Positions 7,753 through 64,000 of a stretch of DNA of 64,000 nt are shown here, in pieces. Numbering within the stretch: the first letter of the stretch is position 1; every line of letters begins with the position of its first letter. The notes below the pieces were generated by a model. The model did not search any database, had not been told where the DNA came from, and saw only the letters and a program-made list of their open reading frames with translations. The translations under genes were made by a program, and so were the position numbers. This DNA comes from Candidatus Aminicenantes bacterium (GTDB taxonomy: Bacteria; Acidobacteriota; Aminicenantia; Aminicenantales; UBA4085). Location: NCBI GenBank assembly GCA_963729855.1, contig CAVSPT010000002.1, forward strand, positions 10,012 to 74,011, written 5' to 3'.

Positions 7753-9408
<1,656 letters not shown>

Positions 9409-10493: not shown

Positions 10494-10505
10494 GCCGGGG
10501 CTCCC

Positions 10506-12439: not shown

Positions 12440-12525
12440 TCGGAAGAGCGGGATCGGAGCGCCGGAGCGCGTTTTCCAGGCTGGGGAAAACGAGCGTGTT
12501 TCGCCCCGAATCTTCGAGCCCTCTA
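12440..12525. repeat. Partial copy of the 5644-5880 palindromic element
   Basis: ggggaaaacgagcgtgtttcgccccgaatcttcgagcc resembles gggggaaaatcagcgtgttttgacccgtgatgcccgaatcgcc at 5805-5847; 3' end abuts/overlaps gyrA stop. Confidence 0.35.
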
Positions 12526-41761: not shown

Positions 41762-41769
41762 GAGGGATC

Positions 41770-44372: not shown

Positions 44373-44400
44373 CCCCATTTCCTATTCCCCATTTCTTCAA

Positions 44401-44433
44401 GGCCGCCCCTTTCGGGGGGCGGCCCCTTTTTTT
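44401..44433 (+). terminator. Rho-independent terminator
   Basis: GC stem ggccgcccc/ggggcggcc with tttc loop followed by 7 T (44427-44433) right after the hutI stop. Confidence 0.7.
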
Positions 44434-44852: not shown

Positions 44853-44858
44853 GGCCGG

Positions 44859-46211
44859 TCAGGCCGACGGACCGGGCTCCGCACCCGTCCTCTTCCCGCG
44901 CACCTTCCAGAACCAGTAGAACGGCAGCCCGGCAAGGATGATGGCCAGGCCGATCATCGAGTTTTTGAACTGGTTGATGAGCGAGTTGACGGTGACGAAG
45001 AGGGCCGCGGCGATGAAAATGACCGGGGTGACGGGGTAACCCCAGGTCCTGTACGGCCGGGGCATGTCGGGGCGCTTCTTGCGCAGGATGAAGACGGCCG
45101 AGACGGTCAGGCCGAAGAAGATCCACTGGCCGAAGACGACATAGGCCAGAAGCTGTTCGAACGTCCCCGACACGCTGAGCAGGAGCGACCAGACGCCGAT
45201 GGCGATGATGGCGACGTGGGGCGTCCTGTACTTCGGATGGACGGCGGCCAGCGGCTTGAAGAAGGCCCCGTCTTTGGCCATGGCATAGAACACGCGCGGC
45301 GAGCAGAGCACGTTGGAGTTGGCCGCGCCCATGATGGAGAACAGGATGACGAAGGACACGATCGAGGCGGCGATCGGGCCGACGGCCGCGCTCATGGCGT
45401 CGGCGGCGATGCGGGTCGATACCGCGATCTGCCCGGCCGGGAGGACGTAGAGATAAGCCAGATTGGCCAGAATGTACAGCAGAATGACGGCGGCCATGCC
45501 GATGAAAAGGCCCAGGGGCAGGTTTTTCTGGGGATTCTTCGTCTCGCCCGCGCTGTACGTGGTCGACTCCCAGCCCTTGTAGGCCCAGAAAACGGCCACC
45601 AGGGCGATGCCGAAGCTCCCCAAAAGGCCGCTCAGGCCGGCGGGCGACGGCTCGACGAAATGGGCCGGGTTGCCCTTGGCGAAAAGGAAGATCACGGCGC
45701 AGATGCCGATGAGGGCGGTGAATTTGATGATCGTCAGGACGTTCTGCAGGTTGGCCCCGGCCCGCGCCCCCAGGTAATTGACGGTCGTCAGGAAAAGGAT
45801 GAAGAGGACGCAGACGGCCTTCTGGGCCAGGGGTGTCAGGGCCATGAAATGGGTCAGATATTTGGACGTGAAGGCCACGGTCAGCGTGGCGATGGCCCCC
45901 GAATCGATGACCAGGAAAAGCGTCCAGCCGAAGAGAAACGAGAGCAGCGGGCCGAAGGCCTCGCGCAAATAGACGTAGGACCCGCCGGCCTCGGGCATGG
46001 CCGCCCCCAGCTCGGCGAAGGATACGGCGCCGAAGAAGCTCAGCATCCCGCCGACGACCCAGACGGCCAGGATAAGGAGCGGCGCCTTGACGCCGGCGGC
46101 GATGCCGGCGGGGACGAGGAAGATCCCGGACCCGATGACGCCGCCGATGACGATCCCGACGACGTCCCAAAGTCCGAGCACGCGGGCGAGGTTTTGACCC
46201 TGTTTCTCCAT
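44859..46211 (-). CDS. APC-family amino acid permease
   Basis: 450 aa, ~12 TM helices, N-terminal GIVIGGVIGSGIFLVPAG consensus of amino-acid/polyamine/organocation transporters. Confidence 0.85.
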   Translation of the reverse strand: MEKQGQNLARVLGLWDVVGIVIGGVIGSGIFLVPAGIAAGVKAPLLILAVWVVGGMLSFFGAVSFAELGAAMPEAGGSYVYLREAFGPLLSFLFGWTLFLVIDSGAIATLTVAFTSKYLTHFMALTPLAQKAVCVLFILFLTTVNYLGARAGANLQNVLTIIKFTALIGICAVIFLFAKGNPAHFVEPSPAGLSGLLGSFGIALVAVFWAYKGWESTTYSAGETKNPQKNLPLGLFIGMAAVILLYILANLAYLYVLPAGQIAVSTRIAADAMSAAVGPIAASIVSFVILFSIMGAANSNVLCSPRVFYAMAKDGAFFKPLAAVHPKYRTPHVAIIAIGVWSLLLSVSGTFEQLLAYVVFGQWIFFGLTVSAVFILRKKRPDMPRPYRTWGYPVTPVIFIAAALFVTVNSLINQFKNSMIGLAIILAGLPFYWFWKVRGKRTGAEPGPSA

Positions 46212-46315
46212 GCCCGCTAGATTAGCGGAATTCAGCCCTCATTTCCACCAAAAGAAAAATGCCGTCATGACCGCCGGAAGTCTATTTTTTCCTTTATATC
46301 AATGCCCTGCGGGAC

Positions 46316-48395: not shown

Positions 48396-48898
48396 TCAAT
48401 AATAGCGGTCCATGGCCCGGTACTGGATGGCCTCGCTCAGATGGGCCGGACCAATCCTCTCCTCCCCCGCCAGGTCCGCGATCGTCCGGGCCACCTTCAA
48501 CGCGCGGTCGTAAGCCCGGGCGCTGAAACCGAGTTTGGTCACCGCCGCCTCCAACAACTTCTCCTCTTCGGCGCCGATGGGGCAGAACTTCTTCACCTCG
48601 CCCGGGCCCATCTGGGCGTTGGCGAAGATCCCCCGTCCTTTATAGCGTTCGACCTGGAGGGCCCGGGCCTCGCTCACCCGCTCGCGGACCGCCTCCGAAC
48701 CCTCTCCCTCCTGCTTGGAGACGATCTCCCGGAATTTGACCGCGGGGACCTCGGCCTGGATGTCGATTCGGTCAAGAAGGGGGCCCGAGATTTTGGAATA
48801 ATAGCGTCCTCTCTGGTGGTCGGTGCACTCGACGTCCCGTCCGCCCAGGCCTCTCAGGACGTCGGCGCAGGGTTGCGTTGCCGTACTGTCATTTAATC
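48396..48898 (-). pseudogene. comM: comM/yifB (Mg-chelatase-like AAA+ protein) 3' fragment, truncated by insertion
   Basis: Continuous minus-strand frame ...ATQPCADVLRGLGGRDVECTDHQRGRYYSKISGPLLDRIDIQAEVPAVKFREIVSKQ...KVARTIADLAGEERIGPAHLSEAIQYRAMDRYY* = YifB C-terminal domain; homology stops at ~48898, the N-terminal ~330 codons are absent. Confidence 0.75.
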
Positions 48899-49318
48899 TT
48901 GAAGGGAAATAAGCCGGTTCACAGGGAGAAATACCCTGATATTTGCAAAACGTGGGGCGACTGGATTCGAGCTCGGAGAATCGATTTGAAGCTCACAAAA
49001 GCCCAACTTTCCCTCAACCTTAATGTTTCGGACATTACGATATATCTTTGGGAACATAATCGAGTCCAGCCGTCTGTAACCCAAATTCCGAAGATTATTG
49101 AGTTCTTGGGACGAGATCCCTTCGAAGCAAATTCCGAAAATTTGGGGGACAAACTCAGATCATACCGGCGGCTGAACGGACTTTCTCAAAAGAAATTTGC
49201 TAAGCAACTGGGAGTCGATTTTACGACTCTGGCCGGATGGGAGAGAGGGGAACACTGGCCGTCGAAAAAGATGCTTGATAAAATCAAATCGGTCTTTTTA
49301 TCCTCCATGCCGAGCTGA
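48878..49318 (+). CDS. Tandem-HTH XRE-family transcriptional regulator (copy 1)
   Basis: 146 aa; two helix-turn-helix units (LKLTKAQLSLNLNVSDITIYLWEHNRVQPS and NGLSQKKFAKQLGVDFTTLAGWERGEHWPS); putative TTG start lies antisense inside the comM fragment. Confidence 0.6.
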   Translation: MPYCHLILKGNKPVHREKYPDICKTWGDWIRARRIDLKLTKAQLSLNLNVSDITIYLWEHNRVQPSVTQIPKIIEFLGRDPFEANSENLGDKLRSYRRLNGLSQKKFAKQLGVDFTTLAGWERGEHWPSKKMLDKIKSVFLSSMPS

Positions 49319-49428
49319 CCTGACCCCCTTCCCCAAATGCCCCTCTCGTCTTTTCCCCGAGTGTCTTGAAATAAAATCGATAAGCCGCCGCCGCCGCTCT
49401 TCCTCTCTACGGCTTGCCCGGGAGTTGA
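49171..49428. repeat. Direct repeat A (~260 bp, 3' end of the HTH gene plus ~110 bp downstream)
   Basis: >90% identical to 51289-51553. Confidence 0.7.
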
Positions 49429-49670
49429 TTGTCGTCTGAAGCGCGAGAGGATGGCTTTTGCTAAAGGTAATAGCATGGACTAGTTCGAGATCGTCGTTCT
49501 TGAAGCATTTGGAGAAGGCGTTTTTCTGCGTTCATTGCAAAAATGGCTTTAGGGCTCACAATGGAATAAAATATTAAAGACAAGCAGGTCTTCAGTATAC
49601 CTTCCAAAGGTTTCTCGACTGTCCAAACAATGGGCGCGGCTTCATTTCCTTAAAAGCATGACTTAAGACG

Positions 49671-51149
49671 ATGAAAATACTCTTGATTTATCCAAAGTAT
49701 CCAGACACATTCTGGAGTTTTAAGCATGCTTTGAAATTCATCTCAAAAAAAGCATCTTTCCCCCCTTTGGGCTTATTAACCGTTGCTTCCATGCTCCCCA
49801 AAGAATGGGAGAGAAAGCTTATTGACATGAACGTCTCGGTTTTAACCGAGGAAGATCTCGAATGGGCGGACTATGTCTTTATCAGCGCTATGGTCATTCA
49901 GAAAACCTCAGCCAGGGAAGTGATTAGAAGATGCAAGAAATTGGGAATCAAAATTGTTGCCGGCGGCCCTCTTTTTACCACCGGATATGAAGAATTTGAG
50001 GGCATCGATCATCTTGTTCTTAATGAAGCTGAGAATACGCTTCCGTCTTTTCTGGATGATTTAAAGAATGGATGCGCCCAATATATGTATACCTCTAAAG
50101 AGTGGCCAGATTTAGAAGGGACTCCCTGTCCACAATGGGACCTCATCAACATGAAAAAATACGCTTCCATGTGCATCCAATATTCCAGAGGCTGTCCCTT
50201 TAATTGTGAATTTTGTGACATTATTGTTCTCAATGGTCATAAACCACGGACAAAGAGTAAAGACCAGATTTTGGGAGAACTGGAAGTTTTATACGAACAA
50301 GGCTGGAGAGGCGGGGTGTTCTTTGTCGATGACAATTTTATAGGTAATACGAAAAGACTGAAAACGGAAATTCTTCCCGCTCTCATCGATTGGATGAAAG
50401 AGAAAAAATATCCTTTTTATTTTTTCACAGAAGCATCTATCAATCTATCTGATGATAAGAAGCTAATGCAATTAATGGTCAAGGCCGGATTTGAAAGGGT
50501 TTTTATCGGAATTGAAACGCCGAATGAAGATAGCCTCACAGAATGCAATAAATACCTGAATAAGAATCGTAACCTGATAGCTTGCGTAAAAAATATTCAA
50601 AACACCGGCCTAGAAGTTCAGGGGGGATTCATCGTAGGTTTTGATAATGATCCTCTTTCTATCTTTGAAAGACAGATAAGTTTTATTCAAAAGAGCGGAA
50701 TAGTCACGGCTATGGTTGGGTTGTTGAATGCACCGCCGGGGACAAAGCTTTTTCAGCGTCTAAAAAAAGAAGAAAGATTATTGGATGATCCCTCTGGTGA
50801 TAACACCGACTTTTCACTCAACTTCATCCCCAAAATGAATGCTGACGCACTCATGACTGGGTATAAGAAAATCCTCAATACGATTTATTCCCCTAGAGAC
50901 TATTATAAACGCGTGATAACATTTTTTAAGGAATATAAACCAATACGGATAAGAAAAAAGATCCATTTTAAATTTTGTTATATCAACGCATTCTTCAAAT
51001 CTATCTGGTTTTTGGGGATAAAAGGAAAAGAAAGATTGTACTATTGGAAACTTTTTTCCTGGACATTAGTAAGGCATCCCCGCTTTTTTCACTTAGCAAT
51101 CACACTCGCAATTTATGGTTTTCATTTTCAAAAAACTATGGCAGCTTAA
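49671..51149 (+). CDS. B12-binding radical SAM protein with C-terminal DUF4070-like tail
   Basis: 492 aa; N-terminal cobalamin-binding Rossmann-like region, CPFNCEFCD radical-SAM cluster motif, long C-terminal extension; low-GC codon usage. Confidence 0.85.
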   Translation: MKILLIYPKYPDTFWSFKHALKFISKKASFPPLGLLTVASMLPKEWERKLIDMNVSVLTEEDLEWADYVFISAMVIQKTSAREVIRRCKKLGIKIVAGGPLFTTGYEEFEGIDHLVLNEAENTLPSFLDDLKNGCAQYMYTSKEWPDLEGTPCPQWDLINMKKYASMCIQYSRGCPFNCEFCDIIVLNGHKPRTKSKDQILGELEVLYEQGWRGGVFFVDDNFIGNTKRLKTEILPALIDWMKEKKYPFYFFTEASINLSDDKKLMQLMVKAGFERVFIGIETPNEDSLTECNKYLNKNRNLIACVKNIQNTGLEVQGGFIVGFDNDPLSIFERQISFIQKSGIVTAMVGLLNAPPGTKLFQRLKKEERLLDDPSGDNTDFSLNFIPKMNADALMTGYKKILNTIYSPRDYYKRVITFFKEYKPIRIRKKIHFKFCYINAFFKSIWFLGIKGKERLYYWKLFSWTLVRHPRFFHLAITLAIYGFHFQKTMAA

Positions 51150-51288
51150 TTATTTTTGAATGAGTCGCTAATTCGCTCCGCTGTCTTTTCTTATTGCTGG
51201 GAAGCAGGAGTCCAAGAGCTTTGGGTTCTGTTCGCCTCATACTCATTTAAATTTCCTTTTTCCTTCAATGCCAAACGTTAATAAACCA

Positions 51289-51436
51289 GCTGAAGGGGCT
51301 TTCTCAAAAGAAATTCGCTGAGCAACTGGGAGTCGATTTTACGACTCTGGCCGGATGGGAGAGAGGGGAATACTGGCCGACGAAAAAGATGCTTGATAAA
51401 ATCAAATCGGTCTTTTTATCCTCCATGCCGAACTGA
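51289..51436 (+). pseudogene. 3' fragment (last ~48 codons) of a third XRE-HTH gene copy
   Basis: Begins abruptly at 51289; mosaic similarity (5' end like copy 2 at 60630, remainder like copy 1 at 49171); no start codon. Confidence 0.5.
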
Positions 51437-51553
51437 CCTGCCCCCCTTCCCCAAATATCCTTCTCGTCTTTTCCCCGAGTGTCTTGAAATAAAATCGATA
51501 AGCCGCCGGCGCCGCTCTTCCTCTCTACGACTTGCCCGGGATGGTGATCGTCT
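51289..51553. repeat. Direct repeat B (partner of 49171-49428)
   Basis: Direct comparison of the two sequences. Confidence 0.7.
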
Positions 51554-51656
51554 CTAAAACAAGAAAATGGCTGTGGCGATGACCGGATAGCCGAAGATCT
51601 CGTTCCACTGCGAAAAGCTACGGTTGGAAGTCAGGATCAAGGGCGCTCTAGATCAG

Positions 51657-52127
51657 CTATATTTTACGATGGATGTATTTTGTGTAATCCTTGATGACTG
51701 GGTGATATTCTTTCTTCATAAGAGGCGAAGAAATCATGAAATCCGCGGTCGAGCGATTGCAGGCGATGGGAATATTATAGACCACCGCGATTCGAAGGAG
51801 CGCTTTAACATCTACATCATGAGGCTGCGGTTCCATGGGGTCCCAAAAGAAAATGACGAAATCGATTCGACCCTCGGCGATCATTCCCCCGAGCTGCTGA
51901 TCCCCTCCGAGCGGACCCGACTTCAATTTGTTGATTTCAAAAGGCTCTTTTTTAATATGATCGCGCTCGAATTTTTTACTGATAATTTCCTCTACCAAGC
52001 GGCCCGTGGTCCCCGTGCAGACCAATTTATGTCGAACCAAGGTTCGATAGTTGAACTCGACCCATTCTCCGAGATCGGGTTTTCGATTATCGTGCGCCAC
52101 AAGAGCGATCGTCTTTATCCTTTCCAT
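51657..52127 (-). CDS. mgsA: Methylglyoxal synthase
   Basis: 156 aa; IALVAHD, CTGTTG, SGPLGGDQQLGGMIAEGRIDFVIFFWDP, PHDVDVKALLR nearly identical motifs to E. coli MgsA. Confidence 0.9.
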   Translation of the reverse strand: MERIKTIALVAHDNRKPDLGEWVEFNYRTLVRHKLVCTGTTGRLVEEIISKKFERDHIKKEPFEINKLKSGPLGGDQQLGGMIAEGRIDFVIFFWDPMEPQPHDVDVKALLRIAVVYNIPIACNRSTADFMISSPLMKKEYHPVIKDYTKYIHRKI

Positions 52128-52660
52128 AGAAAAAGCCTCCAGGTGGACTCAAAAATCTATTGCCGCCGATCTAGTAAGCAGAATTATATCGGGAAAAGGC
52201 ATGATCCCCAAATTCAATTGAAGAAAAATCCTAATCTATCAATGAGGCGCCACCCCCGCTACCCAGCGTCGCTATCCGGGCCCGGCCCCTCGGGCCCCGC
52301 CTCTTCCAAATCGACTTTAATCGATTTACAGAAACTCTTGAAATCCGCAAAGACGTTCTTTTGAATTGCGCCTTGGTTAACGGTTGTTTTTCCTAACTGA
52401 TCGAGATGATCTTCAACCCTCAATGGGTGGTTTGAATAAAAAATCACGAAGGCCGATGAAGGAATATTTTGTTTTGTTCGTTTTTATATTCTCGATGATA
52501 ATTTGGAGTAGTTCTTTTGATGAAGTCCCATATTCAGTTTCCGCATTCCTCCAAATCGTAAAGACAAGCGGCCCTCTGCTTGGAGTCTCATTATTCGTTA
52601 CCATCTTCCCCTTCCTTAAAAATCACTATCTCAACCCGGTCGCACTCCGGGCGGAATTCT

Positions 52661-53113
52661 CTAGGTCGACGAGATCAGCGTTTCTAACGTTTTGATATGG
52701 TTCTGGTCGCCGTTGGCGAGGGCCTGGAAAAGCCGCTGGAGATGAGCGTCTGAGACGACGAGGGAGGCTCCGATGTGGATTCTTTCGAACCTTTTCTCCA
52801 GACTGAGGAGCCATTTCAGGCCGGGGAGAAGGCCAAAATTTTTTTGGAGCCGATCGTGTAATTCCCGGCATTCTTGGAGGCCGAGATTCAATTCTTCTTC
52901 GTCGAAGTTCACGCCTAGGAATATACACGGGGCCTCTTTCAAAAAATTCTTGCCCATCTTGAGGGTTGAGGCGTGGTTGAGTTCTTCGTGGGAGATTTTG
53001 ATAAGCTTCTTTGAAATTGCGTCGTCATGCGTGAGCGTAGCGATCTTCCGGTAGAGCTCGGAGATTTGAGTCTCGATCTCGGTGCCGAGGGTTAGAAACT
53101 TTTCGAATTCCAC
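52661..53113 (-). CDS. Ferritin-like (diiron-carboxylate four-helix-bundle) protein, putative
   Basis: 150 aa, all-helical, paired E...ExxH motifs (EELNH, ERIH) as in ferritin-like superfamily; GTG start with GAGAAAGGGGG RBS. Confidence 0.4.
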   Translation of the reverse strand: MEFEKFLTLGTEIETQISELYRKIATLTHDDAISKKLIKISHEELNHASTLKMGKNFLKEAPCIFLGVNFDEEELNLGLQECRELHDRLQKNFGLLPGLKWLLSLEKRFERIHIGASLVVSDAHLQRLFQALANGDQNHIKTLETLISST

Positions 53114-53126
53114 GCGGCCCCCTTTC

Positions 53127-53240
53127 TCAGGAAGTTGCTTCTGCTTCTTCCTCGATCGTGATGTTAATGATCATACAGTACTCCGGGCGTTCGTCGTGGT
53201 CAATCATGGTGCCCATCTTGTAGTACCGGCAGTAGACCAT
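53127..53240 (-). CDS. 37-aa micro-ORF (MVYCRYYKMGTMIDHDERPEYCMIINITIEEEAEATS)
   Basis: ATG preceded by GGAGGGGGG; stops 14 nt before the ferritin-like gene start; two Cys, Tyr-rich N-half, acidic tail; below ORF-track cutoff. Confidence 0.2.
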   Translation of the reverse strand: MVYCRYYKMGTMIDHDERPEYCMIINITIEEEAEATS

Positions 53241-53311
53241 CCCCCCTCCGGATCTTTCCCGGCGGGCAGCTCGGGCAGGACGTCGGACGGAAGGCTGTTA
53301 TTAGCATAATC

Positions 53312-53494
53312 TCAAATAATTCTAATCTTGCAATACCATCCAAATAGCGCTTCCTTAATATTGATCGAACCTCGATTCTGGTCTTCCTCCATTATTTTTG
53401 CATTCGGGGCATCGGAAAAGGCTTCTTGATGAAGTTTCATGGAGGCAATAAAGCTGCGGATTGCTATTGCCTCTTCCCTTTCCCGCCTCTCCAA
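53312..53494 (-). CDS. 60-aa helical hypothetical protein
   Basis: ORF-track only; same strand and upstream of micro-ORF; competing 67-aa ORF on + strand (53439-53642). Confidence 0.2.
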   Translation of the reverse strand: MERREREEAIAIRSFIASMKLHQEAFSDAPNAKIMEEDQNRGSINIKEALFGWYCKIRII

Positions 53495-53942
53495 CTTGCA
53501 CTTGCTTTTTGTTGCTAAAACGGATGCCCTAACGATTGCTGGCTATATGAAGGCCTTGCTCGTCCTTAAAGAGATGCAGAAATCAGGGGAGATTGAAATT
53601 GTGGCGTTCCAAGGATTGAAGTCATGGATTCGTTCTTTGTGATAAAATATTTCTAGCTCTCGTTAGTCAGCTGGGGAGAGTCCTCCCATCAATCCCCCTT
53701 TTTGCCAACAGCCGGCAATATGTGTGCTCATAATTTGTTCGATTTCCCGAAAATTCACACAGGAACCTTATGATCGGAGCCCGTGGAACTTTGCCCTTCG
53801 AGTTTATTAGATCCTGAACGGAAAGATTAAAGGCAAACTGATAGCAGAAGAACTTATTTTTTATAAAACCGATCAATAATGTAATATGCGACTTTTTCCT
53901 TGTCAGGATGCGGGGCTTTCAAATCTTCCATCAATTTCGAGA

Positions 53943-53972
53943 TTGACTTGATGCAGAATCTCCTTTTATAAT
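53943..53972 (+). promoter_or_regulatory. Near-consensus sigma70 promoter (TTGACT-18-TATAAT) for nfeD-stomatin operon
   Basis: TTGACT 53943-48, TATAAT 53967-72, only 9 nt before the TTG start at 53982 (leaderless or very short leader). Confidence 0.5.
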
Positions 53973-53981
53973 GGAATCAAC

Positions 53982-55259
53982 TTGAGGGAAAAATATTTCG
54001 CTTTAATTTTTCTGGTTCTTTTCCCTGTTTTTTCTCCCGCCGCCATCCTGAAAATCACCGTTGACGCGGCCATCCATCCGGTGACATCCGAGTATATCCG
54101 CGATTCGATCGACCGCGCCGATAAAGAGAACGCCGGCCTTCTTATCATGACGCTCAACACGCCCGGCGGCCTGGATTCGTCGATGCGGGAGATCATCGAG
54201 AAGATTCTTTCGGCCAAAACGCCCATCGCCGCTTTCGTCAGCCCGAGCGGAGGCCGCTCCGCATCCGCCGGATTTTTCATCGGCATCGCCTGCGACCTTT
54301 TCATTATGGCGCCCGGAACCAACACCGGAGCCGCGCATCCCGTCGGCGTTTCGATTACGGGACAGTCCATGGACAAAACCATGGAGGATAAAGTCACGCA
54401 CGACGCGGCATCTTACATCAAGACGTTGGCTGAAAAACGCGGCCGCAACGTCCAGATGGCCGAGGACGCCGTCAGAAAAAGCCTGTCCTATACGGAAAAG
54501 GAGGCGCTCCAGGGAGGTCTCATCGATTTCATCGCGAAGAATGAGCAGGAAATCATCGACGCCTTCGATCAAAAGACCATCGGACGTTTCCATGGCGACA
54601 CCGTCGTCCTCCGTCTCAAACAAGAGCCGGTGATCAGCGTGGACATGTCCGCCCGGCAGAAATTTCTTCTGACGATTTCCAACCCCAACCTTGCCTACAT
54701 CCTGCTCATGATCGGCCTGCTCGGGTTGTATTTTGAATTCGCCAATCCCGGCGCCGTTCTCCCCGGGATCCTGGGCGGCATCTCGCTTCTCCTGGCCATT
54801 TTTTCGTTCCAAATCCTGCCTATCAATTACGTCGGCCTGATTCTCATTCTTTTGGCTATGGCCCTGTTTATTCTGGAGGTCAAGGTGCACAGCTTCGGCG
54901 CCTTTTCAATCGGTGGCATCATCGCCCTGGTCATCGGCTCGATGATGCTCATCAAGGCCCCGATTCCCGAGCTCCGGCCGAGCCTCCGGATCATCATCCC
55001 CGTAGCGCTTGGCATCTCCCTGATCCTTATCTTCCTCGTCTATCTCGTCATCCGGGCCCAGGCCCGCCGGTCGCTCACCGGAAAGGAAGGAATGGTCGGG
55101 GAAATCGGGACCGCCCGGACCGACCTCACCTCCGAGGGGAAGGTTTTCGTCCACGGCGAACTCTGGGAGGCGGAGGCGGTCGAGCCCATTAGTGCGGGCG
55201 AAAAGGTGCGGATCGTCGAGGTCCTTAAGACCCTAAAAATCAAGGTTAAAAAAGCTTGA
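53982..55259 (+). CDS. NfeD-family membrane-bound ClpP-class serine protease
   Basis: 425 aa; signal peptide, ClpP-like domain with GGLDSS...GAAHPVG, C-terminal TM bundle and OB-fold. Confidence 0.8.
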
Positions 55260-55305
55260 CCTATACGATAATGGGAGGCCTTACGGTCTCGGCAAGGAGA
55301 AAAAA

Positions 55306-56067
55306 ATGGAAAGTTACCCGGTCATCGTCGTCGCCCTCATCGTCCTTTATATCCTGGGTTCGATCAAGATCCTGAGAGAATACGAGCGCGGAGTCATTTT
55401 TCGGCTCGGCCGCGTCCTGCCTAAGCCCAAAGGGCCCGGCATCATCTTGGTCTTCTTCCCGATCGACCGCATGGTGAGAATCAGCCTGCGACTCATCACG
55501 ATGGCCATCCCCCCCCAGGATGTCATCACAAAGGACAATGTCACGGTGAAGGTCAACGCCGTTCTCTACTTCAGGGTCATCGACCCGCTCAAATCCGTGA
55601 TTGACGTGCAGGATTATCTCAACGCCACCTCCCAGTTGGCACAGACGACCCTGCGCAGCGTCCTCGGCCAGGTTCCGCTCGACGACCTCCTCTCGGAGCG
55701 GGATAAATTGAACACCCGCATCCAGGCCATCATCGAGCAGCACACCGACCCCTGGGGCATCAAAGTCCAGCTCGTGGAGATGAAACAGGTGGACCTTCCG
55801 GAGAACATGGTCCGGGCCATCGCCAAACAAGCCGAGGCTGAACGGGAACGCCGGGCCAAGGTCATTCACGCCGAAGGCGAATTCCAGGCCGCCGATAAAC
55901 TCCTCCAGGCCGCCAACATCATTTCTACAAATCCGCAGGCTCTCCAGCTCCGATTCCTAGGCACCTTGACGGAGATTGCCGCGGAAAAAAATTCGACGAT
56001 CATCTTTCCTCTCCCCATGGAGCTCTTGAAAGCCTTCACCTATGAAAAAAAGCAGGAGGACAAATAG
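55306..56067 (+). CDS. SPFH/band-7 (stomatin/slipin-like) protein
   Basis: 253 aa; N-terminal TM, SPFH core, classic nfeD-stomatin operon partner; AAGGAG RBS. Confidence 0.85.
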
Positions 56068-56713
56068 GGCCCAGGACAAAAGAGATGCCAGATCGCGAAT
56101 TTAAATTCTCGAGCACCTAGTTCGTCGTCGTCTTCATTGTCATCCTGGTCCAGAGTGTTTTCATCTTCTTGATCGAATTTTTGGTCGTCAAAAAAACAGG
56201 TTGATCTTTCGGCAGGTGTTTGTCGTCAGGCGGTTTCGGACTCGCGAGCTGACTTCTTAAGCTACAGGTTCCTGGTCTCATAATATTTTAACTGACGCCG
56301 TTTGGCAAGGCTTCAAGAATCGCCATCCGGTTCAACTCCCTCCTCATCTTCATGGTCTCCTGGCGGACATTTTCCCACTTTTTCAAGATCACGCGGTCCC
56401 GTCCGTAATACTTGTCTGGACGATAAATTAAGCTGCCGCTTTTGCGCGAGCCCAGAGGTACGGCTATGGGAAGCCGTCCTAACGATCCGCTTTGTAAAGC
56501 GGTCTGTAGGCGGCCCAGCTAGAGAAATGAAATGCCAAGTCTATCGCTGCTAGGATTGCGGCAGGAATTTCGATGAGGTTGAAGCCGAAGGAAAAAAATA
56601 ATCCTAAAGTCGGGCCCACGTTCTCCTAATCGTTTTTTCTTCCCTTAGCCAAGAAAAAAGCCGACGTTACGCATATGATTATCCCCAAATATATCTGAGC
56701 AAAAAGATATTTA

Positions 56714-56865
56714 GCTCCTAGAATTGCCCCTAAGATTAGGGCAAGTCCTAGGAGCCTGTCGGAAAACCCCCTATTTCCGGGGTTTTCCCTTAAATGGCAT
56801 GAAGAAAATAAACGATTTACGCAACGAATAACCCGAAATTATGAGGTAATCCGACAGGCTCCTAG
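56714..56865. repeat. Nested palindromes: imperfect ~42-bp palindrome (56714-56755) and perfect 16-bp inverted repeats (56748-56763 / 56850-56865)
   Basis: gctcctagaattgcccctaagattagggcaagtcctaggagc; ctaggagcctgtcgga ... tccgacaggctcctag enclosing hairpin aaaaccccc..ggggtttt. Confidence 0.6.
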
Positions 56866-57209
56866 AAAGCAGAAAAAAACGATTACATATCTTTGCGCGT
56901 TTTTCATTATTCCCCCCTCTTTAGAATTTCCCGGTTTAGCTTTAGGTAATCTTCGGCCCCGTGGCTATTCGGCGCATAGACGAAAATATCTTGTCCGTAG
57001 CTCGGGGCTTCCGCTAATGCGGCCAGCGTGACCTTGCGTATGCATTCCCAAATCATTGTTGGAGCACCCCGAGGCCGAGCGACCATAGCAGTATAACAAT
57101 AATCGATTGGAACACAAGAATTTAAGGCCTTTGAAGACCCTTGCCGTCACCGGCCGGGCCCGCTATACACCTTCAACCCGCCCAAACTGTCTAACCGTTA
57201 GGGGACACC

Positions 57210-58832
57210 TCACAATCCGTTGGTGAAGCTTCTGAGCGTCTTCGACCGGCTTGGATGCTTAAGCTGGCGCAGAGCCTTGGCCTCGATCTGACGAATGCGC
57301 TCTCGGGTGAGCTTGAACTGCTGGCCAACTTCCTCCAGGGTATGATCGTTCCCGCCGCCCAGGCCGAAGCGCATCTTGAGGATCTTCGCCTCGCGCTCGG
57401 TCAAGCTTCTTAGAGCCTCCTCGATTTTTTCGCGCAGATTGATATGGATAACGGTGTCAGGAGGCGAGAGCATGACCTTGTCTTCGATGAAGTCGCCGAG
57501 GTGGCTGTCCCCCTCCTCGCCGATGGGCGTTTCGATGGAGAGAGGCTGCTTAACGGTCTTGATGATTTTGCGAACCTTGCTCGCCGGCAGGTCCATTTTC
57601 TTGGCAATTTCCTCGCTGGTCGGCTCGCGGCCGATCTCCTGAACGAGCTGGCGGCTGACCCGGTTGAGCTTGTTAATGATATCGATCATATGGACCGGGA
57701 TGCGGATCGTGCGGGCCTGATCGGCGATGGCCCGGGTGATGGCCTGGCGGATCCACCATGTGGCGTAAGTCCCGAACTTAAATCCACGGCGGTATTCGAA
57801 CTTGTCGACAGCCTTCATGAGGCCCATGTTGCCCTCCTGGATGAGGTCCAGGAACTGCAAGCCGCGGCTGGAATATTTCTTGGCGATGGAGACAACCAGC
57901 CGGAGGTTGGCGGCGACGAGTTCTTTTTTGCCCTGGTCGCTGATCTTCTTCCCGGTAGTGATGGAGCGGATGATCTTTCGTAGATTGGGCAAATCAAGCC
58001 CGATGTCCGTTTGTATGGTCCGGATTTGCTTCTGCAGTTCCTGGAGCTTTTCGGACAGGTCTTCACCGTCCTTCTTTTTCCGGGTCTTGGCCAGGAGCAG
58101 CTCGATTTCCTCTTTTTTCTCGTCCAGTTGGTTGACGACGTGGAGCCAGCGGCGGAGGGTTTCAATGATCCTTTCCGTCTGGATTGTTCGAAATTTGAGA
58201 TGCCGAATGGATCTCGATATCTCGACGATGACGCGGCTTCGGGCGAGAGCCTTCTTCCGGTTTTTAGGGATCTTGTCCAACTTCCGGCTCAGGTTGTGGA
58301 TCTTTCGGACCTTGGCCAGGATTTGGTTTTTCTTTTCCTCGAGTTTGCCCTCGGCGATGGCGTCTTCGGAAATGTCAAACATCTCCTGGATGATCATCGG
58401 ATTGGCTTCAATTCGTTCTTCAAGGGACAGGACTTCGTTGAGGACCAGACGGGTCTTGCTGAGGGCCTTGATGATGGTTTTTTCGCCACGCTCGATTTCG
58501 CGGGCGATGGAGATCTCGCCTTCCCGGGTCAGCAGGCTGATATTGCCCATCTCCTGGAAGTAGAGCTTGACCGGGTCGGTCGTCCGCTCCAGCTCCTGAG
58601 TTGTCAGCAGCTCGTTCTTACGCTGGCGGGGTGCAACTTTGCGCTGTTTCTGGTCGAGGATTTTGATCCCGTAGCCATCGATCGAAGAGAGGAAATCGTC
58701 GAAATTCCCCTCCGTTTCGCGCGCGTCCTGGAAGGCCTTGTCGATATCATCAAAAAGAAGATAGCCCTGCTTGCGGCCCTTGGAGATGAGCTCCGATATC
58801 CCGTTTTTGGGAAGTTTAGTGTCGGCCGGCAC
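57210..58832 (-). CDS. rpoD: Second full-length primary-type sigma70 (RpoD paralog/xenolog)
   Basis: 540 aa colinear with the 7753-9408 RpoD (~85% aa identity; regions 2.4 and 4.2 essentially identical) but nucleotide sequence diverged and lower GC. Confidence 0.9.
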
Positions 58833-58893
58833 ATGGCACTCCTCACCGCTACGTTTCGCCCTTCAAAGAAAATACACCTTGACCCGAATTTGT

Positions 58894-58904
58894 TTAGTAT
58901 ACCA
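58894..58904 (-). promoter_or_regulatory. Putative extended -10 promoter (TGgTATACT) of island rpoD
   Basis: Minus-strand tggtatact ~60 nt upstream of ATG with GAGGAG RBS. Confidence 0.35.
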
Positions 58905-58937
58905 CCGGAGAAGTGAAAGTTATAGGCTCCAATACCT

Positions 58938-60000
58938 CTAGAGCTGGAGTCCATCGCCTATTGGCTTGGGCGATGGGGACCTCTCCGCTACAGAGGTCAG
59001 CCTCGGATGATCGATGATCCGATCCACGATGGCATACCCCGTGATGAAAGCGACGACCTTCCTCCTCCTCCTGCACTGGGGGCATCCCATCGGGATGATC
59101 CAGTAACGGTCGCGATCGCTGGGGGCGTTTCCTGACCTGGAATGACCGGTATCTGAAACCAAAATCCTGGGGAGACGCGCGGCCGCTTCAGACTGATCCG
59201 AGTCGGACATGAGTTCCGCGATAAGCTCCTTGACCGTCACGATCTTATTGATCCGGTAGGCGTTATGGCCGCAGAAGATCAGACCGTTATCGACATCCCC
59301 CATAAAGGAATTGACGAGGGCCAGGGCGATGCAATATCTGGCCTCGGCGACCTTACAGGCAGTCAGACAGCGGTAATCACACTTGATCTGGAGCTTGTCC
59401 ACGACCTCGAGCTTTTTCAGGAACTTGTCCCGGATAGCCCGCCCGGGCATTCCGACGGGACTCTTGATAATGCTGTTCCAGGGAGAATCCCAAGTGTCCC
59501 CCCGCCAAAGGACCTTCCAAAATCAGGGCGTCGGCCGTCCGGGCGAAGCGTTTTTCCCACGATCTCAGGATCAATTCGGCGACCCGTCCAGAGCTAACAA
59601 TGGGAACGAGGTTGACCGATGGGTCCTCGACAAGGCCGGGCAGTTTGGCTGGCAGACCGGCCCCATACACGATCATTTTGATGCCTTCCCGAACCGCGGT
59701 CAGGATCAGGTCGTCCACGTTGCTGAGCACGCCCATAAAATTGACGGCCAGGTTGCCATCCGTCGAGCTTTTGGCTTTGCGGATCTCCGATTCCAGGGCT
59801 TCCCGGGATGCTTTTTCGTATTCGTTCTTGGAGGCTTCGGGGTCGCCCAGGCCGATGCTGGATATGGTGCCAACGGCCCCTTCCCGGGCGACGGCCGCGG
59901 CCAGGGAAGAGAGCGAGACCCGCACGCCCATCCCGCCCTGGACGATGGGGATGTCGGCGGTGATGCTGCCGATTTTAAGCTTGGAGATTTTCATCTCCGC
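58938..60000 (-). pseudogene. Nitronate monooxygenase / FabK-like (NMO family) gene with internal frameshift
   Basis: N-terminal IPIVQGGMGVRVS...EGPLAGGHLG in ORF 59377-60285, C-terminal NMO residues continue in a different frame (ORF 58938-59450); frames overlap 59377-59450. Confidence 0.65.
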
Positions 60001-60300
60001 CTCCAGGAGTTTCTCCCCATCCGGACCGATGGGGCAGAACGCCTTCACTTCGCACGGCCCCATCTGGGCATTGGCGTAGATCCCGCGGCCTTGGAACCGC
60101 TCAATCTGTCGCCGCCGGGCCGCCTCGACTCTCGACCGGATCGAGGCCGAGCCCTCCCCTTCCTGTTTAGAGACGATCTCCCGGAACGGCACGCTGGGGA
60201 CTTGCCTGGATATCGATGCGGTCGAGCAAAGGGCCCGAGATTTTCGAGTAATAGCGGGCTCTCTGATGATCCGTGCACTCGTCATCGCGTCCGCCCGCCC
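59995..60300 (-). pseudogene. comM: Second internal comM/yifB fragment (~300 bp), frameshifted, fused upstream of the NMO gene
   Basis: Nucleotide similarity to 48556-48900; encodes ..CTDHQRARYYSKISGPLLDRIDIQ.. then 2-nt deletion relative to copy 1. Confidence 0.65.
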
Positions 60301-60330
60301 CCGCCCGCATCACGTTGGCGCAGGGTTGCG

Positions 60331-60780
60331 TTGCCCTTTTGCCATTTAACCTTAAAGGGAAAAAGACCGGTCCACAGAGAGAAATACCCTGATATTTGTC
60401 GGACGTGGGGCGACTGGATTCGGGCTCGCAGGATCGATTTGAAGCTCACCAAAGCCCAACTTTCCCTCAAGCTTAATGTTTCGGACATTACGATATATCT
60501 CTGGGAGAAGAATAAAGTCCAGCCGTCCTTGGCCCAGATTCCAAAGATTATCGAATTCCTGGGCCGCGATCCGTTTGAAGCTGAAGCCGGAAGCCTGGCT
60601 GAAAAACTCAAAAACTATCGCCGGGTGCAGGGGCTTTCTCAAAAGAAATTCGCTGAGCAACTGAAGGTCGATTTTACAACCTTGGCCGGGTGGGAGAGAG
60701 GGATACATGAACCGTCAAAAAGACTTCTAAACAAGCTAATCGCCGCAATAAGCTTTTCTAAACGTAAGGAAGCTATTTGA
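60331..60780 (+). CDS. Tandem-HTH XRE-family transcriptional regulator (copy 2)
   Basis: 149 aa, ~80% identical to 48878-49318 copy; same TTG-start position relative to the comM fragment. Confidence 0.6.
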   Translation: MPFCHLTLKGKRPVHREKYPDICRTWGDWIRARRIDLKLTKAQLSLKLNVSDITIYLWEKNKVQPSLAQIPKIIEFLGRDPFEAEAGSLAEKLKNYRRVQGLSQKKFAEQLKVDFTTLAGWERGIHEPSKRLLNKLIAAISFSKRKEAI

Positions 60781-60885
60781 ACCCATATTTCCCAAATAGA
60801 AATCAAAACTTGTTATAATATTAGCTGAAAAGGCTGATGAATAAAGGCTGATGGCGATATTAAAGCAGAAAAACGGAGAGACCTG

Positions 60886-61212
60886 ATGGGTGAGAGCAAA
60901 AAAGAGGTCTTGCGGGTCCAGTTTGACCCCAGTGTGAAGCTGGAATTCCAGGGCGCAAAAATAACCAGTGATGGCGGTCTGCTGCTTTTCAGAGAGATGG
61001 ATGAAGTGATGGGATTGACGGTTTTGGCCGAGAAAATTCTTCAGGATCCGCGCACGGGCCAGAATACCTAGCACACGATGACGGCATTGCTTCGCCAAGC
61101 GGTATATGGACGGTTGGCCGGATACGAGGATACCAATGACGCCGAGCGGCTGCGAGTCGACCCGGCCCTGCAATGGGAGAATTCAATCTGTGATGGAGGA
61201 ATCAGGTGGCTT
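60886..61212 (+). pseudogene. IS1380-family transposase N-terminal remnant
   Basis: KITSDGGLLLFREMDEVMGLT ... (TAG at 61069) ... ALLRQAVYGRLAGYEDTNDAERLRVDPALQ = conserved N-terminal motifs of IS1380 transposases; only ~108 codons, in-frame stop, remainder deleted. Confidence 0.7.
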
Positions 61213-61259
61213 TGATCGGTCATATGGGAAATCCCGGTTAAAATATGGAGGATTAAACA

Positions 61260-62765
61260 ATGGCAGTTGAACCAGCATCAAGCATGAGCACGCCAGATTT
61301 CGGCGCCCTCGTCGCCCGTCACCGCAACTACTTCTTGTCGGGCGCGACCCGCTCTGCGGAATGGCGAAAAACCCAGTTGATCGCATTGCGGTCGATGATG
61401 AAGGACCACGCCGAGGAGTTCTACGCCGCGTTGTGGACGGACCTCCGCCGCAACCGGACCGACGCGGATTGGACTGATGTGAAGTACATGACCAGCGAGA
61501 TCGACCACGTGCTTGCTCACCTTCGGCGATGGATGAAGCCGCTAGCGGTGAGCACGCCTCTTGTTCTGACACCATCCCACGCGCAGGTGCAGTTCGATCC
61601 TCTCGGGGTCGGGCTGATTATCGGCACGTGGAACTATCCAGTGATGATGGTACTGTCACCGTTAGTCTCGGCGATTTCCGCGGGGAACGCAGCTGTTATC
61701 AAGCCATCGGAAGTATCTCTAGCCACCGCCGAAGTGATCGCACGGCTCGTCCCCGAGTATCTGGACCGCAACGCGTTTTCAGTAGTCCTCGGCGCGATAC
61801 CCGAGACTACGGCACTACTGGAGCAGCAATGGGACCACATCTTTTTTACAGGTGGCTCGACCGTCGCCAAGGTGGTCATGACCGCGGCAGCGAAACATTT
61901 GACCCCAGTCGTGCTCGAACTGGGCGGGAAGAATCCCACCATCGTGCACTCCTCAGCCAACCTGCGCGTCGCGGCGCACCGCATCGCTTACGGGCGCTGG
62001 TTTAATTCCGGCCAGACGTGCACGGCGCCGGACTATGTCCTCGTGTTCAAGGACGTTGCCAAGGCATTTCTAGGACACCTGAAAGAAACGTTGCTTCAGT
62101 TCTACGGAGAGGATCCGCAGAAAAGCCCGGATTATGGCCGGATCGCCAGTTCCCATCACTTTGACCGTCTGACGAAGCTGCTCAGCAGCGGGACGATCTT
62201 TCATGGTGGGCAGCACGACGGGACGGACCGTTTTATCGCGCCAACGGTGCTGGTCAACGTGTCGCCGGACTCGCCCGCAATGCAGGAAGAGATTTTCGGC
62301 CCCATCCTACCGGTACTGGAGGTCGCCGACGTTCGGGAAGTGATCGACTTCGTCAACGCGCGGCCGAGCCCTCTCGGTCTGTACTTGTTCTCTGACGATC
62401 GGTCCGTAACCGAGCAGATCCTGAACTCAACGACATCGGGGGATGCCTGCGTCAACGACTGCACCCTTCAGCCGATCCTCCATGATTTGCCATTCGGCGG
62501 CGTCGGCAACTCCGGAATGGGCAAATATCACGGCGAGTGGGGATTCCGTACGTACACAAACGCGCGCGGTGTTCTGTACCACAGCACGCGACTCGACTCA
62601 GCCGTCCGTTATCCTCCTTACGACCGTAACCAGAGGCTGCGGGAATTTGTGTTAAAGAGTGCTTCGATGGCTCCAAAATTACGAGCTTCTCTTGGCTCGT
62701 ACCGGATTCCACTCGATTCGGAGATCATCGAAGGCTTAATCGAAGACAACCGACTTCACCAATGA
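61260..62765 (+). CDS. NAD(P)-dependent aldehyde dehydrogenase (ALDH3-like)
   Basis: 501 aa; ELGGKNP, catalytic Cys in GQTCTAPDY, GGAGG RBS. Confidence 0.85.
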   Translation: MAVEPASSMSTPDFGALVARHRNYFLSGATRSAEWRKTQLIALRSMMKDHAEEFYAALWTDLRRNRTDADWTDVKYMTSEIDHVLAHLRRWMKPLAVSTPLVLTPSHAQVQFDPLGVGLIIGTWNYPVMMVLSPLVSAISAGNAAVIKPSEVSLATAEVIARLVPEYLDRNAFSVVLGAIPETTALLEQQWDHIFFTGGSTVAKVVMTAAAKHLTPVVLELGGKNPTIVHSSANLRVAAHRIAYGRWFNSGQTCTAPDYVLVFKDVAKAFLGHLKETLLQFYGEDPQKSPDYGRIASSHHFDRLTKLLSSGTIFHGGQHDGTDRFIAPTVLVNVSPDSPAMQEEIFGPILPVLEVADVREVIDFVNARPSPLGLYLFSDDRSVTEQILNSTTSGDACVNDCTLQPILHDLPFGGVGNSGMGKYHGEWGFRTYTNARGVLYHSTRLDSAVRYPPYDRNQRLREFVLKSASMAPKLRASLGSYRIPLDSEIIEGLIEDNRLHQ

Positions 62766-62909
62766 CGTCATGGACAAAGCGGACTGAATGGAGATCGAAA
62801 GGATATGCTTATTTCCGGCTTTACTTCTATACGCAGCAAGATGAGATATATGATTTAATAGGTCAATTGCTTTTTCGAAGTGATCCGTCGATGACGAGGA
62901 TGAATTCAC

Positions 62910-64000
62910 ATGAACTCGATAAAACTTCTCCTGGTTTCTGTCTTCGGGCCCTTCGGGGTGAGGGACGATTACGCTGAGGGAAATGGAATGCAGATGGAAC
63001 TCTTCAACAACCAGATCACGAGGCAGCAGGGAGTCCACTCGCCCCGGCAGTCCTACTGGAGTTTCCCGCTGTACCTGCTCGCGGAGAATGTCTCGGTGCC
63101 TGCAACTGTTCTCGATTTTCCCGCCTGGGAAGAATTCACGAGGGAACTGGAAAAGGGTTACACTCACGTGGGCATCACTTTCATCGTCCCCAACGTCCTG
63201 AAGGCTCGAAGGATGGCCGAGCACATTAGATCGAAGCACCCTGAGATGAAGATAATACTGGGCGGCTTCGGCACCATGGTCCCTGCCCTGGAGACCATCG
63301 TTCCCCACGACGGTGTATGCGACGGCGAGGGTGTGGAGTGGCTGAGGCGGTACTTCGGGGAAGACCCATCGGCACCCATCGTGCATCCTGCCATTTTCGG
63401 CCCAGCCTACGAGTACATCTATGGGGCAAGGATTCCCACGAAGGGGTCGATCCTGCTCACCGGGGTGGGATGCAACAATGCCTGCGAGTTTTGCGCCACC
63501 TCCTTCAAGTTCGGCAAGAAGTATGTGCCCTTCATGTCGACCGGGGCCCAGGTGTTCGATGCCTGTCTGAAGTCCGAAAAGGAACTGGGTTCAAGGGGAT
63601 TTGCCATTATCGATGAGAATTTCCTCAAGAAGCCCCAACGGGCCAGGGAACTTCTTGCCCAGTTGGAGGCGCAGGAGAAGGCCTACGTCTTCGACATATT
63701 CTCCTCTGCCGAGGTGATCACCGATGTAGGCATCGATTTCCTCGTGCGACTCGGCATACACGTGATCTGGATCGGTGTCGAGTCGAGGGCGAACACCCAT
63801 GCGAAGCTTAAGGACATAGACATCGGCAACCTGATAGCTCAGCTCCAGGAAAATGGCATCTCGGTGATAACATCCGGCATCCTTTTCCTTGACCACCACG
63901 ACCAAGAGACCATCAGGGAAGATATCGAGTGGATCATTGGTCTCGGTTCCGACATGACCCAGTTCATGAACTACACACCCTACCCATGCACCGGCTTGTA
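62910..64000 (+). CDS. B12-binding radical SAM protein (5' partial, runs off window)
   Basis: Open frame from ATG 62910 to window end without stop: cobalamin-binding domain (HVGITFIVPNV...KIILGGFG), radical-SAM CNNACEFCATS motif; absent from ORF track because no stop codon in window. Confidence 0.7.
   Translation, partial: MNSIKLLLVSVFGPFGVRDDYAEGNGMQMELFNNQITRQQGVHSPRQSYWSFPLYLLAENVSVPATVLDFPAWEEFTRELEKGYTHVGITFIVPNVLKARRMAEHIRSKHPEMKIILGGFGTMVPALETIVPHDGVCDGEGVEWLRRYFGEDPSAPIVHPAIFGPAYEYIYGARIPTKGSILLTGVGCNNACEFCATSFKFGKKYVPFMSTGAQVFDACLKSEKELGSRGFAIIDENFLKKPQRARELLAQLEAQEKAYVFDIFSSAEVITDVGIDFLVRLGIHVIWIGVESRANTHAKLKDIDIGNLIAQLQENGISVITSGILFLDHHDQETIREDIEWIIGLGSDMTQFMNYTPYPCTGL

Follow-up and report, generated by a model that had tools for sequence, protein, structure and literature searches.

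Why should a bacterial contig carry a second, complete gene for a primary-type sigma factor inside DNA that otherwise looks accessory? The question is raised by a stretch of 64,000 nucleotides (nt) of a contig from Candidatus Aminicenantes (Acidobacteriota), the whole of which is referred to here as the window. Two rpoD genes lie in it. The island gene, copy A, is on the minus strand (57210..58832) and encodes 540 amino acids (aa) from a GTG start; the dnaG-linked gene, copy B, is on the plus strand (7753..9408) and encodes 551 aa. Both are recorded, 48 kb apart, on a single public contig of 78,496 bp (database proteins P0001 and P0026, respectively), and the best database matches are RpoD proteins of Candidatus Aminicenantes metagenome-assembled genomes (MAGs). 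Below, L-numbers denote other contigs or loci and P-numbers denote database proteins.

We put the probability at roughly two in three that copy A is an acquired, functional, and non-essential sigma factor of the alternative-primary or group-2-like kind, carried in an island in comM and co-resident with the canonical primary sigma factor of copy B. In the mechanism we propose, horizontal transfer from an L003-like Aminicenantes donor of about 58% GC would have brought in the rpoD that now lies within mosaic DNA inserted in the host's comM, and RNA polymerase core carrying copy A would be guided to promoters of the class used by the housekeeping sigma factor, because the helices that recognize the -10 and -35 elements are unchanged. 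Since the gene is intact, under selection, and unaltered in these reading heads, we expect a working sigma factor on housekeeping-class promoters, one that would be expressed and would bind RNA polymerase. Its co-residence with copy B is the reason for regarding it as probably dispensable.

The initial annotation of this DNA described a complete 540-aa RpoD with regions 1.1 to 4.2 on the minus strand, and the open reading frame (ORF), Pfam, and the NCBI models agree with it. The ORF of copy A is free of stops and frameshifts over its 540 codons; inactivating mutations, a possibility which that annotation had raised, were looked for in copy A, and none was found. Pfam regions 1.1, 1.2, 2, 3, and 4 all score above the gathering score in copy A (Sigma70_r1_1 at residues 9-66), as all five do in copy B, and both proteins pass the NCBI RpoD equivalog model NF004208 (609.6 bits for copy A and 645.7 bits for copy B, with a cut-off of 555 bits). 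Copy A also scores 379.7 bits against TIGR02393, for which the cut-off is 354. The end coordinate originally given, 58904, is not the end of the ORF; it corresponds to the TG of an extended -10-like element, and the GTG start is at 58832. Together with phylogeny and selection, described below, the ORF and the Pfam and NCBIfam matches mark the gene as an acquired (xenologous), secondary, full-length, primary-like sigma-70.

Only copy B sits at the housekeeping locus. It is preceded by dnaG (5989-7734), with a gap of 19 nt, and followed by tRNA-Met (9486-9557) and then by a Zn-ribbon gene, an AMP-ligase gene, gyrA, and gyrB, a synteny that identifies it as the resident canonical primary sigma gene. 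The dnaG-rpoD-Zn-ribbon(-gyrA) arrangement is shared by L004 and L005, the latter from an Aminicenantes of 42% GC, with 71% identity between its RpoD and copy A. Copy A is off the dnaG-rpoD locus; judged from the window ORFs, its flanks are a frameshifted nitronate monooxygenase (NMO) gene and gene-free DNA.

The two proteins are 79% identical (428/539 residues by BLASTP, with 91% positives and no gaps), which is less than the approximately 85% first estimated. That the nucleotide sequence of copy A is diverged and lower in GC was correctly noted at the outset: codon-aligned identity is 80.7%, falling to 64% at third codon positions, and GC is 55.5% in copy A (76% at third codon positions, GC3) versus 60.6% in copy B (GC3, 92%). 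The codon-aligned comparison proposed in the initial annotation gives a nonsynonymous divergence (dN) of 0.116, a synonymous divergence (dS) of 0.78, and a dN/dS of 0.15, and places the copies far below the >98% identity of an assembly duplicate. The promoter-recognition helices had been called identical, and they are, the region 2.4 helix and the region 4.2 recognition helix matching fully; a V-to-L and a K-to-Q difference between copies A and B lie just outside the latter.

Origin of the second copy

Two trees place copy A apart from copy B. A neighbour-joining tree of 120 Aminicenantes RpoDs groups copy A with P0002, P0004, P0005, P0006, P0012, P0017, P0023, and P0027 in a clade of long branches; P0003 stands beside this clade on a short branch. 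In a second neighbour-joining tree, built from regions 1.2-4.2 with 200 bootstraps, the group formed by P0003, the full-length clade, and shorter forms described below receives 100% bootstrap support and excludes copy B; the same group without P0003 receives 96%. A phylogeny of RpoD against its relatives had been suggested as a check on the origin of copy A, and this is its outcome.

Distances agree with the trees. The dS from copy A is 0.23-0.37 to the genes of L001, L002, L084, and L003 (0.33 to L003, which carries the gene of P0003) versus 0.78 to copy B, and protein identity is 82-87% to clade members versus 79% to copy B. Copy A is nearer the L001, L002, L084, and L003 genes than copy B in every 45-codon window. 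Gene conversion between copies A and B was considered and rejected, as no window of copy A is nearer copy B. Because dS is lower to these four genes and copy A is closer to them in every 45-codon window, an L003-like donor is favoured, and the data support copy A as a xenolog from an L003-like Aminicenantes lineage of lower GC (∼58%). In L003, GC is 57.6% over the contig and 57.7% in rpoD, which is followed by Zn-ribbon, AMP-ligase, gyrA, and gyrB genes, as downstream of copy B; among genes with such canonical downstream neighbours, it is the one nearest to copy A. The L003 contig starts with three copies of a 33-nt tandem repeat (1-237).

The initial annotation had argued for acquisition from a related donor of lower GC and not for a recent in-genome duplicate, a view that the dS contrast and the 100% bootstrap clade bear out. 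The position of the two copies on one contig, 48 kb apart, and their collinearity over 539 residues without gaps would suit an origin of copy A by duplication within the genome, with later divergence and a change in GC. Such an origin is scarcely credible, however, given a dS of 0.78 to copy B versus 0.23-0.37 to others, the greater proximity of copy A to the rpoD genes of other organisms in every 45-codon window, and a fully supported clade that excludes copy B, whose own close relatives (94-96% identity) are canonical.

The region upstream of copy A seems to have travelled with the gene. A Shine-Dalgarno-like GAGGAG (58839..58844, minus strand) lies 6 nt upstream of the GTG and is conserved in clade members and L003. 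An extended -10-like element, TGgTATACT (58896..58904, minus strand), has no good -35 hexamer, and related motifs occur at the equivalent place in L001, L002, and L084; a generic promoter scan that needs two hexamers did not call the TGgTATACT site of copy A. By blastn, leader homology extends to 58886 in L001 and L002 and to 58943 in L084, and blastn together with alignment delimits a conserved 5' leader and promoter region at 58833..58943 (minus strand). The leader of ∼70 nt, the ribosome-binding site (RBS), the GTG start, and the extended -10-like motif are kept in related genes on other contigs, so the putative extended -10 and RBS that the initial annotation assigned to copy A are not only present but conserved among relatives.

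Two further elements were seen on the downstream side. The window (56208-56339) and L084 (12682-12813) share, ∼1 kb downstream of their rpoD copies, a conserved patch that resembles a promoter (TTGCCA-17-TATTAT) and has a leader; the 268-aa gene that it precedes in L084 is missing from the window. A 40-nt inverted repeat (56748-56787 and 56826-56865, 80% complementary, 38 nt apart), possibly a miniature inverted-repeat transposable element or a terminator, lies in the 1.1 kb without genes on the downstream side of copy A.

Constraint and form in a clade of secondary copies

If copy A were a second housekeeping sigma factor, it should keep what canonical sequences keep. An alignment of 111 canonical Aminicenantes RpoDs contains 374 columns with conservation of 97% or more, which we treat as near-invariant. 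The canonical proteins themselves rarely depart from these columns (median, 0; maximum, 7), and copy B does so once; members of the clade depart from 23-49 of them, and copy A from 37. Two of the changes, Y362F and E440Q in copy B numbering, are present in 30 of 31 clade members and in none of the canonical sequences, P0003 included. From a PDB chain alignment, residue n of copy A corresponds to residue n+74 of Escherichia coli sigma-70 from residue 256 on, and Y362 and E440 of copy B correspond to E. coli Y425 and E503, so that the clade changes are Y425F, in region 2.3, and E503Q. E. coli Y425 is one of several aromatic residues of region 2.3 implicated in promoter melting, and E503 lies just ahead of the region 3.2 finger.

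Other changes are narrower in distribution. The arginine of the region 1.2 motif (copy B position 104; Q93 in copy A) is replaced in all nine full-length clade members and kept in 18 of the 22 forms without region 1.1, a pattern that may reflect epistasis with region 1.1 or phylogenetic accident. Private to copy A are E458D and T459I (E. coli numbering), in the helix that contacts the TG of the extended -10 element.

Substitution rates point to relaxed but persistent constraint. The copy A branch carries 29 nonsynonymous and 30 synonymous private changes, for a nonsynonymous-to-synonymous ratio per site (pN/pS) of 0.285 (binomial P = 2.4e-6 versus neutrality), about twofold the value of 0.15 on the canonical L003 and copy B branches. 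Fisher's test of clade versus canonical branch rates gives P = 0.046 for copy A alone and P = 8e-6 for the clade branches pooled, and dN/dS in the clade is about twofold above canonical. These counts indicate that copy A is still under purifying selection. Nor is the gene simply a second housekeeping sigma factor: it is an RpoD by the models applied, but its clade breaks many canonical invariants and evolves about two times faster.

Copy A's clade would, in our interpretation, have left housekeeping constraint, sharing Y425F, E503Q, and, in its full-length members, the loss of the region 1.2 arginine. The likeliest effect would be altered initiation kinetics or regulation and not a new promoter specificity. 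The roles first suggested for the copy, a buffer against sigma competition or a driver of island expression, are speculative.

Neutrality would yield nonsynonymous and synonymous changes on the copy A branch at about 3.4:1, and the observed 29:30 makes it unlikely that copy A is a decaying hitch-hiker that came with the island, has no role in its host, and is merely undisrupted so far. The 540 codons without a stop or frameshift, the intact recognition helices and core-binding regions, the conserved leader, RBS, and promoter-like motif, and the persistence of the clade in many assemblies speak the same way. Such a passenger would fit the decayed neighbours of copy A (the frameshifted NMO gene, comM' and helix-turn-helix [HTH] fragments, and a transposase stub, with 1.1 kb of gene-free DNA downstream), the raised rates across the clade, the 37 canonical-invariant positions broken in copy A, and the pN/pS of 1.4 on the branch of L001, a contig that also holds an rpoD fragment. 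The fragment (L001 6177-6304), 128 nt from the interior of an rpoD, shares 88-92% identity with clade genes; it is a remnant of another copy and is separated by 3.3 kb from the full-length gene upstream.

Dozens of secondary rpoD copies are present in databases within Aminicenantes, and some have lost a domain that copy A retains. A DNA probe of the conserved RBS-to-start sequence retrieved a 479-aa form (L119 1058-2497) with a clean in-frame deletion of region 1.1 (junction ISEFIS/QGLERT); its identity to copy A is 87% at the protein level and 90.5% at the nucleotide level. Three near-identical contigs carry it, as does a fourth that is 93% identical. Small accessory genes in a block of 41% GC lie on one side of it and housekeeping genes of 65% GC (nitroreductase, recO, and an ntrC-like regulator) on the other. 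When the 479-aa form was used as a protein query, 22 RpoD-like sequences of 477-507 aa were retrieved that have no region 1.1 domain; at least six different lesions, comprising distinct internal deletions and N-terminal truncations, have removed it. Because the short forms are interleaved with full-length ones in the tree, region 1.1 is judged to have been lost repeatedly. The forms without region 1.1 are those of L119, L089, L095, and L100 and proteins P0244-P0263, P0267, and P0274, and all that were tested pass the RpoD equivalog model.

The surroundings of these genes vary. None of eight clade loci (those named are the window, L001, L002, L084, L088, L100, and the L089/L095/L119 locus) places its rpoD copy next to dnaG, Zn-ribbon, or gyrA genes, and the flanking genes change from locus to locus, with no conserved partner gene near the clade copies. 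Genes of ∼270 aa downstream of the L002 and L084 copies were considered as a common partner and rejected, being unrelated; only a radical-SAM gene recurs among the neighbours (window and L002).

The want of a partner bears on whether copy A could be an element-encoded takeover or defence sigma factor, MzaA-like or phage-type, that steers RNA polymerase toward the genes of the island. Its island location and its own promoter-like element would suit such a role, and the model for MzaA, the MZA anti-phage sigma (NF041931), is among the NCBIfam matches. We nonetheless regard the role as very improbable: copy A scores 390.8 bits against that model versus a cut-off of 800, no better than copy B, and MzaA was rejected as an identity; viral contigs in IMG/VR include no close relative (best full-length match, 48%); no partner gene is conserved among clade loci; and helices identical to those of the host sigma factor lead one to expect no distinct promoter class.

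An acquired, working, and dispensable copy A may also be one instance of something broader, although we hold this larger picture only tentatively, at clearly less than even odds. Under it, genes derived from the primary rpoD of one lineage form a horizontally spreading lineage within Aminicenantes; the gene, with ∼55-110 nt of leader, would land repeatedly in accessory regions of hosts of 41-67% GC, fix Y425F and E503Q, and then lose either the region 1.2 arginine or region 1.1. The clade would be a living series of the birth of a group 2 sigma factor, with copy A at an early, full-length stage; such a birth in progress is only partly demonstrated here. No paper linking Aminicenantes with rpoD or sigma factors was found in the literature searched, and on that basis the clade of spare rpoD copies appears to be undescribed so far.

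The origins of extra primary-like sigma factors are usually ancient and obscure, and here a donor, a landing site, a rate shift, shared substitutions, and recurrent, independent losses of region 1.1 are visible in one uncultured phylum. The clade offers a testable series from a housekeeping sigma factor to a group-2-type regulator, and it supplies natural variants (Y425F, E503Q, E458D, loss of the region 1.2 arginine, and deletions of region 1.1) in which effects on initiation could be assayed. There is a practical consequence as well: since pipelines will label every such gene RpoD and rpoD serves as a single-copy marker, these copies may distort marker phylogenies and contamination estimates for MAGs in Aminicenantes.

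The island in comM

The initial annotation placed copy A on an accessory island, and the left border of that island can be defined. Positions 40008-46236 of the window are colinear with L085, a 67%-GC contig from another assembly, at 82.6% nucleotide identity. About 2 kb past the colinear block, L085 has a full-length comM, though it is split by frameshifts in that assembly, whereas in the window only the last ∼170 comM codons survive and abut an HTH_3 gene. The surviving 3' fragment, comM'-1 (48396..48914, minus strand), is cut on its 5' side by the island and is identified by its translation, by Pfam Mg_chelatase_C, and by 81.6% nucleotide identity to the 3' end of L085 comM. The HTH_3 gene (48878..49318, plus strand; two-domain, by Pfam) forms the left end of the inserted DNA, and we refer to the comM' fragment and this gene as module 1. 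The break lies at ∼48.88-48.91 kb. What follows (48884..64000) is mosaic DNA of 34-65% GC in 400-nt windows, with gene fragments and one frameshifted gene, and GC, which is 62-68% before ∼46-49 kb, is 41-58% from there to the window's end. No homology to the 5' flank of L085 comM was found in the window at 49-64 kb, and the island is for that reason at least 15 kb long, with its right border beyond the window.

The junction itself recurs. A second comM'-HTH module lies inside the island at 59991..60780 (comM'-2, 59991-60296, minus strand; HTH-2, 60340-60780, plus strand); it breaks comM at the same codon as module 1 and is 73-83% identical to it. The same comM'/HTH junction is found in L200, which has two modules (956-1831 and 5239-5750), and in L086, a 296-kb contig on which two tandem modules (9546-13083) lie beside TraG/TrwB-type and DUF87 genes and the same radical-SAM gene as in the window. 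Among the best 120 database matches to the window comM fragment, nearly all are ORFs of 145-250 aa that hold only the C terminus of ComM, and the stubs inspected begin at the same motif. At the junction, ATQ/PC replaces AAMN/PC. The comM'-HTH module marks the end of what looks like a family of site-specific elements aimed at a single comM codon.

These modules also bear on whether the contig is an assembly chimera in which a 65%-GC genome was joined at a shared repeat, for example comM'-HTH, to DNA of another Aminicenantes, so that the two rpoD copies never share a cell and copy A is perhaps the main rpoD of another organism. GC drops from ∼65% to 41-58% without returning within the window, the contig comes from a MAG, and the comM'-HTH module is a widespread repeat in the phylum that could mislead an assembler; in addition, all clade-bearing contigs have 53-56% GC over 12-21 kb, and copy A is on one contig only. 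A chimera nonetheless seems improbable to us. The GC drop sits inside the comM'-HTH module in both copies and is intrinsic to it, which is why an assembly seam at 48.85 kb was rejected; at 73-83% identity, the two modules are too diverged to confuse an assembler; and the host comM is truncated at an element-typical junction, implying an insertion there in any case. Even if foreign, the segment is island-like, with a second comM' module, pseudogenes, and no dnaG synteny. Furthermore, independent contigs in three assemblies show the 479-aa relative directly beside housekeeping genes of 65% GC, and forms without region 1.1 are implausible as a sole housekeeping sigma factor. An island in the host's own comM, cut at ∼48.88 kb by the end of an HTH-bearing element where syntenic L085 has the gene intact, is the setting we accept for copy A.

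The rest of the island is varied in content. A B12-binding radical-SAM/DUF4070 gene (49671..51149, plus strand; 36-43% GC; Pfam) is bracketed by 253-nt direct repeats (49171-49423 and 51289-51541) from the 3' half of the HTH gene, the second of which is a partial third copy of the HTH module (51289..51541, plus strand), 95% identical to 49171-49423. The radical-SAM protein is 87% identical to its L002 homologue, encoded 1.5 kb upstream of the rpoD copy there, and 85% identical to its L086 homologue, encoded on the 3' side of comM. Further along are an NfeD-SPFH (Band 7) gene pair (53982..56067, plus strand; Pfam), carried as island cargo, an MGS-like gene, and an aldehyde dehydrogenase gene.

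Immediately upstream of copy A is the NMO gene (58938..59990, minus strand), split by a frameshift into pieces at 59377-59990 and 58938-59450, with Pfam NMO matches on both; the comM'-2 reading frame runs straight into the NMO start. In the downstream piece, the final ∼85 residues (CPQCRRRRKVVAFI...) have no Pfam family match; they may resemble the C terminus of an IS91-type transposase. Just right of the second HTH module is a 61-aa N-terminal fragment of a DDE transposase (DDE_Tnp_1_4 by Pfam; 60886..61071, plus strand), and apart from this stub no integrase, recombinase, or transposition module was found at 48.9-64 kb. Rfam gave no match in the window at 46-64 kb.

Several points weigh against our interpretation of copy A and its history. 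The source is a metagenome-assembled contig, the 90%-identity cluster of copy A has a single member on a single contig, and only on this one contig is a clade member directly seen alongside a canonical rpoD. The trees are neighbour-joining and not maximum likelihood. For L003, the canonical arrangement is confined to the downstream side: the 237 nt upstream of rpoD show no 3' end of dnaG, so that the dnaG-rpoD linkage may be broken in the donor lineage as well. Copy A has no integrase, transposase, or other vehicle next to it, and the right border of the island lies outside the window, which leaves mobility putative; the left junction is defined, and a second comM'-HTH module lies inside the island. 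Finally, the decay around copy A might mean that the gene itself is heading the same way, and at least one clade member, L001, has a branch pN/pS above 1, albeit from a small number of changes.

Comparison with comM islands and additional sigma factors

Genomic islands that insert in comM (yifB) include the AbaR-type islands of Acinetobacter. The element in the window resembles these in its break at a fixed position of comM, the leftover 3' comM fragment, and the arrays of elements, and the interruption is evident against the allele of syntenic L085. It differs in having no recombinase or transposition genes in the visible 15 kb and in the two-domain HTH_3 gene at the element end; relatives of the comM'-HTH element carry TraG/TrwB and DUF87 conjugation-type genes instead (L086).

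As a sigma factor, copy A shares features with two known classes. Like group 2 sigma factors (RpoS and cyanobacterial SigB-E), it is close to group 1 over regions 1.2-4.2 (79% identity to copy B, with identical region 2.4 and 4.2 helices), has similar -10 and -35 determinants, and is presumably non-essential. Group 2 sigma factors lack region 1.1 (Paget 2015, PMC4598750), however, and copy A keeps it, whereas its 22 relatives of 477-507 aa, without region 1.1, have the group 2 architecture. The clade is also young, at a dS of 0.2-0.4 from a primary rpoD, in contrast to the classical group 2 families, which are ancient, and it is not known to be linked to a stress response.

Additional primary-like sigma factors have been documented in Cupriavidus and Burkholderia (PMC2864759, PMC2194791), and, with dozens more in Aminicenantes, the initial statement that a full housekeeping-type copy is unusual was too strong. 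As with RpoD2 on the Cupriavidus metallidurans chromid, the extra rpoD, SigI, and SigJ of Burkholderia, and HrdA, HrdC, and HrdD of Streptomyces, copy A is an extra full-domain gene besides a canonical rpoD, in this case on the same contig and in a separate clade with 100% bootstrap support. Such alternative primary sigma factors are thought to come from duplication or from another lineage and are presumed to fine-tune transcription at similar promoters (PMC2864759, PMC2194791). The resemblance of copy A to the resident primary sigma factor (79%) far exceeds that of, for example, RpoD2 of strain CH34 to RpoD1-type proteins; the donor of copy A is identifiable within the same phylum, and the gene lies in a comM island and not on a second replicon. 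Unlike the alternative primary sigma factors, moreover, its clade has been caught at several stages in the loss of region 1.1.

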